Shown here in pieces: positions 186 through 62,075 of a stretch of 64,000 nucleotides of DNA; positions within the stretch are counted from its first letter, which is position 1, and each line of letters begins with the position of its first letter. The stretch is from positions 24,343 to 88,342 of IMG/VR virus record IMGVR_UViG_3300044678_002654. One strand, 5' to 3'. The translations under genes and the position numbers were made by a program. Source of the DNA: a virus. The notes under the pieces are model-generated. The model was not told the DNA's origin, ran no database searches, and saw only the letters and a list, made by a program, of their open reading frames with translations.

Positions 186-962
186 TTACACTGACAGCGC
201 CTCAACCGCGAGCAGCAGCGCGAGGCACACGGCGCCGACACGCTCTTGTGGGTACATAGCGTCATGAGACCGTGCGACGACCTCAACCGTTTCGGGCGCG
301 ACGCTGAGCGCCAGGAGTTCTTCTTGCGCACGCGGCCAAAGGAAGGCGAATCCGGTTACGACTGCGTCGACTTCGTCTACAGCGGCGACCTCAGTCGGGA
401 GAAGGACATCGATCGCTTCGTGCACCGTGGCCTGCTGCGCAGGGAGCAACGACACGAGTTGGCAGCGTTTCACGCGGTGAACAAGGGCCACTTGGAAAGA
501 CCCGTTCCCTTGCCCGAACGCACCGAGGAGCGACCGGCGATAGATCTCAAGGGAGTGGCATGACGCTGGAAAAGAGGCATCTACGCGCATGTCACGCAAA
601 GATTGATCACGTAGTGAGCTCGCCGGCAGCATCGAGAAGAAGCGCGTCTCGTATACCGTTTCAGGCGTTACGGTACCAGTGCTCACGACCCTGACGACAA
701 TAGGCGTACCAGGGGAAAAGTGCCGCCGACGACGAAGCGTGACAACGATGAGCGTGTTCGACGTCGTGGCGGTGCCGCGCACCTCTGGCGGGTGAAACAC
801 GTGGAAACCGCTGTCGTACTCGAACCCGAGAACACCGTCGATGTAGATGTTGACGCGTGAGAGATTCTCCGCAGTAGCTTGCACGGTCACGGTCACAGGC
901 GCGTCAACGGCGATGCCGACGCTGTCGGGGCTTGGGCTACGCAGGGCTGTAGATAGGCTCAC
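186..962 (-). CDS. putative virion protein with beta-rich/Ig-like N-terminus
   Basis: 258 aa ORF overlapping the stop of the upstream gene; SPSPDSVGIAVDAPVTVTV...VNIYIDG; tail-module context. Confidence 0.45.
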   Translation of the reverse strand: MSLSTALRSPSPDSVGIAVDAPVTVTVQATAENLSRVNIYIDGVLGFEYDSGFHVFHPPEVRGTATTSNTLIVVTLRRRRHFSPGTPIVVRVVSTGTVTPETVYETRFFSMLPASSLRDQSLRDMRVDASFPASCHSLEIYRRSLLGAFGQGNGSFQVALVHRVKRCQLVSLLPAQQATVHEAIDVLLPTEVAAVDEVDAVVTGFAFLWPRAQEELLALSVAPETVEVVARSHDAMYPQERVGAVCLALLLAVEALSV

Positions 963-1954
963 GTATGTGCTCCACTGCGGCGAGGTGTTGCAGCCGGGCG
1001 ATTGACGGTTTCAGGTCGCGCGTTCACGCGAACAGATGCGGGTACGGTAGCAGGTGTTGCCGCAGGCGTCGGAGCGGGGTTGACGATGGGCTCAGGTGAT
1101 GCCGTCGGTGGTGAAGACACAGTGCGTGGATCGACTGGCGCCGGCACTGCCGAGAGCTCGGCGTTCACAGGCGTGGTAGCAGTGACAGCCGTCGTCGTGC
1201 GCTCACGAGCCGCCGTCCGAGCAGGGCCAGCGGCGTTCGGGTCGTCCGAGAAGTCCGAGGCGGGAACCGTTGGCTTCCAGTTCTGCTCGTAGTGGATGAT
1301 GCGGATCTCCCGCACGAGGAGCTGGAAGCTGAAATCGACCTTGTTTTGTAGCTCGGAGCTGTGCCCGAGCTGAATGTTCACCATCGCCCCTTGCACGATG
1401 TAGGCGCCATACCGCAGGGCTACGACCTTCTGCCGTTTGGCGACCTGCGCGAGGCGCAGGATGTGGACGTACAGGCGGTAGAAGTTCGTCGCCTGATCGT
1501 CCTGTCGCGTGTTGAGGAGCAGGCCCGAGTAAGGGAAGACAGGCGGCTCCTGGTCGAAGGAGTAGACGACGTAGTTCCCCTCAAGGGTTGGCGCGACCTG
1601 ATAGTTCTCGCGCAGGACATGCACGGCGCTCTGAAGGAAGAAGTCGACGTAGCCGGTGCTCGCGTTCGAGCGCTGTTCTCGCTGCCCCGCGTCACCAGAC
1701 GGCGCAGGTTCAGCGACGGATAGCGCCCTGAGCCCTGTCACCTGAGGAGCGAGTCGCTCTTGGACAAAGGAGTCACCGATCGAGCGCAAGAACGTGTCGC
1801 GTTCGCCTGGGTCGACTCGCATGAAGATCTTGGCGAGAGTATCCCGATGGTTCTCGTCACGACGGAGACCTTCATTGATCGCGTACAAGGGCGTCGCGCC
1901 CTTGATGTCGTCGTTGAACTGTCCGCGCAGTCCTACCTCTGTAGAGCGGCTCAC
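959..1954 (-). CDS. putative tail tube initiator / baseplate protein
   Basis: 331 aa; FFLQ...ENYQVAPT...YSFDQEPPVFPYSGLLLNT pattern resembles large-myovirus tail proteins; Pro/Ala/Thr-rich C-terminus; follows tape-measure-like gene. Confidence 0.45.
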   Translation of the reverse strand: MSRSTEVGLRGQFNDDIKGATPLYAINEGLRRDENHRDTLAKIFMRVDPGERDTFLRSIGDSFVQERLAPQVTGLRALSVAEPAPSGDAGQREQRSNASTGYVDFFLQSAVHVLRENYQVAPTLEGNYVVYSFDQEPPVFPYSGLLLNTRQDDQATNFYRLYVHILRLAQVAKRQKVVALRYGAYIVQGAMVNIQLGHSSELQNKVDFSFQLLVREIRIIHYEQNWKPTVPASDFSDDPNAAGPARTAARERTTTAVTATTPVNAELSAVPAPVDPRTVSSPPTASPEPIVNPAPTPAATPATVPASVRVNARPETVNRPAATPRRSGAHT

Positions 1955-2136
1955 TTCTCCTCCTCGACCATGACGAGAGGCCCAAGCTCACCCGTCACGA
2001 GGCGTGCGAGCTGAAAGGTAGAAGGCATCGTCACTGAAGGCGTCCTTGCCTTGAGGAAGTTCGAGATCACGTTGTGCACGGTCTCACCGACAAGCTCGAC
2101 CCCGTTCGGGAGCGCTACACGTTGCTTGACGCTCAT
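1951..2136 (-). CDS. small hypothetical protein
   Basis: 61 aa ORF translationally coupled to both neighbours. Confidence 0.6.
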   Translation of the reverse strand: MSVKQRVALPNGVELVGETVHNVISNFLKARTPSVTMPSTFQLARLVTGELGPLVMVEEEK

Positions 2137-61637: not shown

Positions 61638-62032
61638 AGGTCTGGGTGGTTGGATCGACGGTGTTCAATTATTCAGACAGAACAGGCAGGTACCACCTCG
61701 TCGAAGACACCATGCGGACCATCAACCTCCGCGTGTTCCTCTCTGCAAAGGAGGCGGAAGCACACGCCGCAGAAGAGGCGAGCGAAGAGATGCGCGTGCT
61801 GTACGAGCACAACCTGCTCTCCGACTACTGCACCGGATGGCAAGTGGAGCGTCTCTCAGACGCGCAACGCACTCGGCTCACGCTGATCCTCCGCGATAGC
61901 GATAGCCCCATGCACCCTTATCAGATCTGCCGAGGGCCGTTCCCGGATCGCAGGCTATCGAACGCCGAGTGCGCTGAGCTGCTGGAGATCTTCCCGCATC
62001 TCAAGTGGGTGGTTCGAGAGGTCGATGTGTAG
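61634..62032 (+). CDS. HLKWVV family paralogue 3
   Basis: ECAELLEIFPHLKWVVRE. Confidence 0.7.
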   Translation: MKVWVVGSTVFNYSDRTGRYHLVEDTMRTINLRVFLSAKEAEAHAAEEASEEMRVLYEHNLLSDYCTGWQVERLSDAQRTRLTLILRDSDSPMHPYQICRGPFPDRRLSNAECAELLEIFPHLKWVVREVDV

Positions 62033-62046
62033 CTGATTTCACCTCG

Positions 62047-62075
62047 TGAAAACCGCTGCTGGGTTCGGGTATAAG
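62047..62075 (+). promoter_or_regulatory. putative promoter TGAAAA-N17-TATAAG overlapped by palindrome
   Basis: GTTCGGGTATAAG identical to 11996-12008. Confidence 0.6.

Follow-up and report, generated by a model that had tools for sequence, protein, structure and literature searches.

A 13-bp palindrome, TTCAC-N3-GTGAA, recurs at even intervals across the 64,000-nucleotide stretch of viral DNA analysed here (the window; positions 24,343 to 88,342 of the IMG/VR record IMGVR_UViG_3300044678_002654) and across the full 88,342-bp contig from which it is taken (G000; CheckV completeness about 51%). Both this grid and the selection acting on its sites are solid observations. As to what reads it, we consider it on balance probable, by analogy with known ParB machines, that the sites are loading sites of an orphan (ParA-less) clamp of ParB and cytidine triphosphate (CTP) that would cover the phage chromosome. 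An initial annotation of the window had proposed a dimeric protein bound along the genome at regular intervals: the sites are indeed DNA-level, symmetric, even and independent of operons, while the binding protein and its function are what we infer from sequence.

The repeat is sharply defined. All 28 perfect cores listed in the initial annotation were found at their coordinates (28/28), and its expectation of almost none by chance agrees with 100 dinucleotide-preserving shuffles of the window, which gave a mean of 0.05 copies and a maximum of 1; its estimate of about 64% GC is likewise close to the 0.61-0.65 measured along the window. The three one-mismatch copies that it gave (39409, 40287, 54132) are genuine, and a fourth, at 20520, had been overlooked. 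Over the whole contig we count 38 sites, the ten arm positions being invariant in 38/38, with just 5 one-mismatch copies, 4 of these in the window. N3 alone is enriched (38 copies in the contig vs 0-2 at every other spacer length counted, 0-2 and 4-11), the arms in reversed order occur 0-2 times, and TTCAC-GTGAA without a spacer, which corresponds to the inside of canonical parS, occurs 0 times in the contig. Outside the motif, the CACNNNGTG core stays at background (30 copies after subtracting the 38, vs 21-39 for other spacers). Symmetry extends beyond the arms as well. In the window, a T precedes the left arm or an A follows the right arm at 26/28 sites, no spacer has A as its first base or T as its last, and 26/28 have G or C in the middle, all as previously described; in the contig the spacer rule, itself symmetric, holds throughout with a G/C centre in 36/38, and the flanking T and A are present at 18/38 and 17/38 sites, respectively.

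The sites are far more even than random placement, as the initial annotation had also suggested from its list of positions. Gaps between the 38 sites average 2327 bp (minimum 568, maximum 4866) with a coefficient of variation (CV) of 0.40, a value attained in 0 of 100,000 uniform placements (lowest 0.45; P<1e-5); taken separately, a largest gap so small has P=4.5e-4 and a smallest gap so large P=4e-5. Gene layout does not produce this regularity: positions drawn from gene ends are less evenly spaced (mean CV 1.16).

The grid is largely indifferent to coding sequence (CDS), gene positions being taken from our own crude CDS calls. Nineteen of the 38 sites lie fully inside CDSs, a count that synonymous-codon shuffling does not reproduce (mean 0.58, maximum 3 in 300 shuffles), which makes the motif a DNA-level signal accommodated by whatever sequence is at hand. 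Within genes, the sites occur in frames 1 and 2 of both strands, in line with the earlier remark that they lie deep inside CDSs in different frames, and some stand 0.5-1.6 kb from the nearest gene end, within structural genes of 900-1,560 codons. There is also a preference for gene junctions, 18/38 sites falling within 20 nt of a gene end vs 8.5% of random points. This preference arises because the arm's TGA (or TAA) can serve as a stop codon and GGAG as a ribosome-binding site: 5 genes terminate, in frame 0, at the TGA of the right arm, and a GGA spacer followed by the first G of the right arm makes a GGAG that doubles as a ribosome-binding site. Beyond this use of GGA, the spacers show no orientation bias. 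The five unrelated genes concerned (window 10954, 17676, 21527, 34871 and 57643) all end F-T-x-stop through the palindrome's TGA, and the arm change seen in the sister clade (below) converts TGA to TAA, so the stop codon is retained at the site.

The grid is shared by relatives in two spellings. The cultured-phage collection held no close relative of G000 by megablast and a helicase search returned one distant IMG/VR locus; relatives were gathered by alignment of the terminase (TerL), which gave 31 IMG/VR loci. Subclade A (G006, G007 and G008; TerL 68-69% identical) carries the TTCAC/GTGAA spelling only, with 14 sites in 36 kb, 16 in 40 kb and 10 in 31 kb, respectively, G006 and G007 looking near-identical to each other. 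Subclade B (TerL 38-43% identical) carries (T)TTAC-N3-GTAA(A) only and no TTCAC sites: G001 (179 kb, rated complete) has 43 N3 sites vs 0-3 for other spacers, and there are 36 sites in G011 (180 kb), 16 in G010, 14 in G009 and 6 in G012. The spellings differ at one arm position, and the change is mirrored (left-arm C to T, right-arm G to A); no grid-bearing genome mixes them. Here too many sites are inside CDSs (27/43 in G001, 22/36 in G011) and spacing is mostly even, with CVs of 0.53, 0.54 and 0.44 in G006, G007 and G008 (P about 0.01 each), 0.50 in G001 and 0.43 in G011 (0 of at least 20,000 placements as even) and 0.49 in G009 (P=0.006). Mean spacing nevertheless varies from 2.3 to about 10 kb between genomes, which argues against a fixed mechanical period. 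One further genome, G017, retrieved through its ParB, has a GC content of about 0.376 and 18 sites vs 3 for a control word, with GC-rich spacers despite its AT-rich genome. The grid is thus present from GC 0.376 to 0.67, a range that favours a phage-encoded reader over a host one. In the more distant relatives G013-G015 (144-204 kb), the motif is matched 0-1 times and no palindrome of any kind is enriched.

Alignment of relatives reveals strong purifying selection on both arms. When the first 21 kb of the G000 contig were aligned with G008 by MAFFT (62% nucleotide identity), 5 of the 10 G000 sites fell in exactly the same alignment column as a G008 site. At these five shared sites the arms are identical at 50/50 positions, the spacers at 5/15 and the flanking 30 bp on either side at 154/285 (54%), so that conservation in relatives, named from the outset as a check on the sites, is clear. 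Another 3-4 sites on each side are lineage-specific, indicating turnover of sites while the spacing is kept. A 1.3-kb metagenome contig with an 85%-identical copy (amino acids) of P0001, a window gene described below, retains the site, its spacer changed, 242 bp upstream of that gene, and the offset of site 38376 relative to P0001 is thereby preserved in this relative. Four lake-water metagenome runs from four studies, matched via contig positions 9001-29000 (L169), held near-identical copies of the phage with no informative variants; one of them may be the source sample. Conserved arms together with a mirrored arm change are what a dimeric protein reader predicts.

The best candidate for such a reader is ParB. 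A full ParB (ParB_N plus HTH_ParB) is encoded in 7/7 of the grid-bearing records searched that reach the locus (G001, G009, G010, G011, G012, G006 and G007), as a protein of 307-448 residues whose gene lies 10-14 kb from the terminase gene; G017 encodes a ParB as well. In the Pfam scan, from which the G007 protein was left out as identical to that of G006, HTH_ParB was above the cut-off in 6/6 proteins and ParB_N in 5/6. The proteins have in common a GxRRxR box, an ENxQR-like box, a Lys-rich linker and a C-terminal motif, and the CTP-binding motifs are recognisable, with G-R/E/H-R-R in 6/6, EN..R in 6/6 and the Q kept in 4/6. Compared with structures, the phage ParB profile matches Spo0J (4e-42), Noc (1e-40) and KorB (6e-24) as well as ParB, and no cultured phage came closer to the clade's ParB than 33% identity, over a part of that ParB's length. 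HTH_ParB is missing from 3/3 grid-less relatives (G013-G015). The ParB appears to be an orphan: a search with the ParA-type AAA_31 model (PF13614), other ParA models such as PF01656 not being searched, found none in 5/5 genomes with a control positive in 14/14. Among the 31 other open reading frames (ORFs) of G001 that share ParB's pattern of presence and absence, 10 were scanned against Pfam; only RuvC could be named and no other DNA-binding domain was seen. By synteny with G006, the parB gene of G000 is predicted to lie about 12-14 kb past the left end of the contig, and it is through these relatives that we infer a link between grid and ParB in this phage. In G001, parB is flanked by two PD-(D/E)XK nucleases (66829-67788 and 72930-73775; L175) and an SNF2 helicase, the first of the nucleases being clade-specific, like ParB.

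The even spacing could arise, we propose, because no binding event serves more than a limited DNA stretch; a ParB clamp gated by CTP, loading at sites and diffusing over a kilobase or two, would, by analogy, be the known machine with just this property. A phage-encoded symmetric DNA-binding dimer, with which the invariant arms, the mirrored change between clades, the indifference to genome GC and the regular spacing all agree, would dock at the 13-bp palindromes; being an orphan ParB dimer, it would load at the site, bind CTP and close into a clamp, and the closed clamp would then slide a limited distance away. One site per 2-5 kb might in this way keep the entire phage chromosome occupied. 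Sites too close together would be redundant and decay, and over-long gaps would be selected against, yielding even spacing. ParB would be the presumed binder, sliding its presumed behaviour and coverage the property presumably under selection. Candidate end uses are chromosome organisation or condensation, shielding from nucleases or self-marking, long-range silencing, and a platform for DNA-acting enzymes.

Among known systems, the closest is KorB, which on the IncP plasmid RK2 has 12 OB sites spread around the replicon. A CTPase of the ParB family, KorB can slide as far as 1.5 kb from OB, the 13-bp TTTAGCGGCTAAA, TTTAG-CGG-CTAAA (PMC11790492). OB shares with the grid sites the 13-bp 5-N3-5 layout and a GC-rich centre, the words themselves being TTTAG-CGG-CTAAA for OB, TTTAC-NNN-GTAAA for subclade B and TTCAC-NNN-GTGAA for G000. 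There are also clear differences: KorB serves a plasmid, with KorA and IncC (a ParA) as partners and sites near promoters, whereas in the phages no ParA was found by the search above and many sites are mid-gene; and, unlike KorB, the phage has 38 or more even sites on a genome of roughly 175 kb.

A second parallel is the Noc protein, whose many sites are scattered over the chromosome and which tethers DNA to the membrane, blocking division; we know of no description of even spacing as a feature of Noc-binding sites (NBS). Noc of Bacillus subtilis is an orphan ParB paralogue without ParA, with palindromic sites and a CTP switch. The NBS consensus is TATTTCCC-GGGAAATA and that of parS TGTTTCAC-GTGAAACA (bioRxiv 724823). 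Noc and the phage ParB are alike in the profile match given above (1e-40) and in being ParA-less, but an NBS has 16 bp without a spacer and a phage site 13 bp with N3. In chromosomal parS, as given by the same preprint, the inner six bases (positions 3-8) of the half-site TGTTTCAC correspond to the (T)TTCAC arm, while the outer TG is not conserved in grid sites. The ParB_N plus HTH_ParB architecture of chromosomal ParB is common to the ParBs of the relatives. On the other hand, parS has no spacer, is clustered near the origin and works with a ParA partner, whereas the grid has a 3-bp spacer, is genome-wide and comes with no ParA that we found. On a by-eye reading of the alignments, K171, R173 and N178, positions of DNA contact that ParB and Noc conserve, appear to be replaced in the phage proteins.

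Several observations weigh against a ParB clamp as the reader. No ParB gene is present in the window or its 88-kb contig, and the donors of the synteny argument, G006 and G007, are just 69% identical to G000 in TerL. The pattern of presence and absence of ParB is common to 32/69 conserved G001 ORFs, so the correlation between ParB and grid amounts mostly to one or two evolutionary events. Sites are not consistently beside parB, both ends of the gene being flanked solely in G006/G007. Canonical ParB and Noc sites are spacer-less; inserting 3 bp rotates the half-sites by about 100 degrees, and KorB is the one precedent for a spacer, yet the phage ParBs are nearer in sequence to Spo0J/Noc than to KorB. 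Spacing in G010 is not significantly even (CV 0.67, P=0.09) and the grid of G009 is sparse, with 14 sites in 168 kb. Elsewhere, protein and palindromes do not go together in the same way: the cultured Agrobacterium phage 7-7-1 has an HTH_ParB protein, yet just 4-7 copies of one palindrome and no grid across its genome, and phage Corndog combines 34 palindromes with a protein that has the ParB_N domain only. In phage 7-7-1 (L286+L287), the HTH_ParB protein is encoded at 23023-23790, and copies of the palindrome, TACAAAT-N-ATTTGTA, could be where it binds. No comparable palindrome is present in the first 50 kb of Saccharomonospora phage PIS 136.

Unlikely in our view, and yet the foremost of the rivals, is a reading in which a different dimeric phage protein of a family not recognised here (for example, a ribbon-helix-helix protein, as in MatP-matS) organises the chromosome or acts on SMC-type complexes at the grid, ParB being a fellow traveller. 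The matS site is GTGACATTGTCAC in E. coli and GTTACNNNGTAAC, with core TTAC-N3-GTAA, in Photorhabdus (bioRxiv 2021.06.29.450292). Like the grid site, matS is a 13-bp 5-N3-5 palindrome, and the Photorhabdus core is the very word of subclade B. Moreover, most of the 32 clade-specific conserved ORFs with ParB's phyletic pattern lack a Pfam match. Still, matS is confined to the chromosome terminus and read by a ribbon-helix-helix protein whereas the grid is genome-wide, and the MatP domain (PF06303) was not found in 5/5 genomes at E<=0.1. None of the small conserved candidates scanned (0/10) has a DNA-binding domain, ParB is the one protein among the scanned clade-specific ORFs that is recognisable as a sequence-specific DNA binder, and its family's half-site matches the grid arms in its inner bases.

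The same rival draws on Corndog, whose grid exists without HTH_ParB. Cluster O mycobacteriophages carry 17-bp dyads, TGTTCGG-N3-CCGAACA, with no function assigned and roughly a third inside genes, and the authors predicted a dimeric binder unrelated to transcription initiation (PMC4351075). We confirmed the count in Corndog, 34 in 69.8 kb or about one per 2 kb. Corndog and G000 have in common invariant inverted arms, 3 variable bp and tens of copies genome-wide, partly in genes; Corndog differs in its word and in spacing that, unlike that of G000, is not even (CV 1.06, P=0.77). Its gp90 has ParB_N without HTH_ParB, and 0 G000 proteins match Corndog at E<=1e-3. Later literature on the Corndog string, to 2024, assigns no function in titles and the openings of abstracts.

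Compared with an orphan ParB or another chromosome-organising dimer, a global transcription regulon is improbable. The sites would then be operators, read by an activator, a repressor or a silencer of stoperator type, or else promoter elements of one of the phage's two sigma-like factors, and the preference for gene ends, the site 25 nt ahead of a sigma-factor gene and the fact that KorB is itself a global repressor would all fit. That preference is, however, accounted for by the use of the arm as stop codon and of GGAG, and a regulon explains poorly why half the sites, several of them far inside large structural genes, and most of those in G001 and G011 are in CDSs, or why spacing is even when sampling of gene ends makes it uneven. 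Furthermore, the sites are palindromic and have no orientation relative to transcription, while sigma factors read asymmetric -35/-10 elements. The initial annotation had named a stoperator-like network as its main alternative; because the sites are palindromic, unoriented to transcription and often mid-gene, this fits poorly. Cluster A stoperators are many copies of a short site over the phage genome, also in genes (PMC4351075), but they are asymmetric, oriented with transcription and serve a lysogenic repressor, whereas grid sites are perfect palindromes. Among the genes scanned, which were part of the gene set, we saw neither an integrase nor a repressor.

Less probable still is a host reader, be it a Chi-like nuclease modulator, a nucleoid protein or an SMC-unloading factor, whose site the phage would mimic. 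The word does differ between clades of differing GC, which could track hosts, and it resembles chromosomal parS and matS words; but TTAC-N3-GTAA is essentially kept from GC 0.376 to 0.58, implying very different hosts, and spacer-less TTCAC-GTGAA cores number 0 in the contig. Chi-type sites are asymmetric and orientation-dependent, whereas the grid word is palindromic and identical on both strands.

We find it no easier to believe that the grid is the target of a cutting, nicking or modifying enzyme; nicks of T5 type, a mark made by base modification and a nuclease or methylase resembling DraIII (CACNNNGTG) would be examples. Homodimeric type II enzymes typically recognise palindromes interrupted by N3, the subclade A core includes CACNNNGTG, and G001 has two PD-(D/E)XK nucleases beside its parB. 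Phage ParB-like proteins can also activate DNA thymine dioxygenases: a preprint reports this for phage ParBs without a DNA-binding domain. Yet the CACNNNGTG core outside the motif is at background, the subclade B core is the different TACNNNGTA, and an enzyme target does not in itself require even spacing. No N6/N4 or C5 methylase domain was found in 5/5 genomes, nor a Tet_JBP domain in 5/5, the latter a weak negative as its control was silent in every genome.

Least credible of all is an RNA or single-strand DNA hairpin (processing site, antiterminator, primase or polymerase signal): the arms can pair into a stem of 5 bp under a 3-nt loop, and GGAG lies over the loop and first stem base at some junction sites, but such stems have little stability (-2.7 to -3.8 kcal/mol for G000 sites and -0.2 for a subclade B site taken as the core only), the C-to-T arm change lowers it further while the grid persists, 2/6 stretches fold clearly better than shuffles with the best fold not the site hairpin in 2/6, and an invariant stem without compensatory variety points to read-out of sequence, not structure.

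Taken further, the orphan ParB clamp suggests a picture that we hold to be possible though doubtful: a clade of aquatic phages of about 170-180 kb would combine the clamp with a self-specific grid, built of parS half-sites set 3 bp apart and hence orthogonal to host parS. If so, a clamp-coated viral chromosome would be a sequence-encoded mark of 'self', perhaps creating a protective or organising compartment, excluding host nucleases or SMC-type defences, or guiding enzymes to phage DNA only, and the specificities of site and protein would co-evolve between clades. Known roles of ParB-family CTP clamps are the partition of chromosomes and plasmids, nucleoid occlusion and the silencing of plasmid genes; if the ParB reading is right, an even loading grid over the whole genome of a large and apparently lytic phage would put the ParB CTP switch to a new use. 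We found no description of such a grid in the literature, and the palindromes of Cluster O type, a ten-year-old puzzle, might find an explanation here. The two natural spellings (TTCAC/GTGAA and TTTAC/GTAAA), together with two diverged ParBs, would amount to a built-in specificity swap, and the even spacing (2.3-5 kb) could be a genomic read-out of the clamp's useful range from its loading site.

Within the window, a ParB-like protein had at first looked like the prime candidate for the reader. P0001 (38619-39479, plus strand, 286 aa) has an LLDGQHRL motif and a ParB/Srx-like N-terminus, and several actinophages annotate its family as 'ParB-like nuclease domain protein'. We rejected it as it is not conserved among grid-bearing genomes, which hold one weak partial homologue, in G001. 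P0001 matches nothing in Pfam or NCBIfam at 0.01, nor any PDB sequence; it belongs to phrog_5931 (4e-48), whose function is unassigned there, ParB-like phrogs matching weakly. The family is widespread (92 phage records, at least 500 IMG/VR and at least 440 metagenome stretches) and the flanks of its loci are mostly without a grid.

The perfect sites of the window, all given without strand, are distributed as follows. Sites in minus-strand CDSs are those at 469..481 (TTCAC-GCG-GTGAA), 14142..14154 and 24067..24079, together with 2295..2307, within the minus-strand CDS of 1205 aa, and 3753..3765, mid-gene in that CDS; 19824..19836 is in a plus-strand CDS, 45133..45145 in a called CDS, 25504..25516 at the start of the SNF2-type helicase gene, 54470..54482 at a CDS 3' end, and 38376..38388 in a small CDS, 243 bp ahead of P0001. 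The TGA is a stop codon at 10954..10966 (that of the upstream gene), 17676..17688 (the gene ending F-T-E-stop), 34871..34883 (F-T-G-stop), and 21527..21539 and 57643..57655, in both of which the following start is 12 nt on. Intergenic sites are 6932..6944, with a helicase gene start 17 nt on, and 9039..9051, directly past the helicase stop, as well as 11960..11972 (divergent gene pair), 27202..27214 (GGAG over spacer and arm, 8 nt ahead of a start codon), 43242..43254, 47942..47954 (by our gene calls) and 62038..62050 (past a stop codon). Genes diverge on either side of 29692..29704, whose left flank extends to TGTTTCAC; 31510..31522 is at the gene junction following the ThyX gene, 51478..51490 at a gene junction and 59447..59459 at a junction of overlapping genes, while a sigma-factor gene starts 25 nt on from 36129..36141 and a start codon lies 8 nt on from 43810..43822. 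The one-mismatch copies at 39409..39421, inside the P0001 gene, and 40287..40299 partly fill the largest gap; the other two are at 20520..20532 (last arm base T) and 54132..54144.

Other genes round out the picture of the phage. A sigma-factor-like gene in the window (36160-36873, plus strand) shows Sigma70 regions 2 and 4 as well as a match to phrog_351; a second one, with region 3, lies about 4.5 kb left of the window (contig 19126-19845, minus strand), within the structural module, and is conserved in all relatives. Nucleotide and DNA metabolism is represented by ThyX, an SNF2-type helicase, a UvrD-type helicase, a large helicase, a ribonucleotide reductase and a RuvC-like resolvase, the last named through its G001 orthologue; these genes are at 30644-31501, 25500-27047, 15451-16908 and 6955-9033 in the window and at 6637-8970 and 6060-6620 in the contig. 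A pentapeptide-repeat protein of 301 aa is encoded at window 62356-63261 on the plus strand (Pfam E=6e-52). Finally, one GC-rich phage contig, L033 (IMGVR_UViG_3300025924_000067), was considered as a further grid and set aside as an unrelated contig with a gene-start-associated repeat and no HTH_ParB in its record; between 2503 and 19834 it carries 18 copies of TTTAGGT-N2-ACCTAAA in 20 kb, mostly just ahead of ribosome-binding sites.

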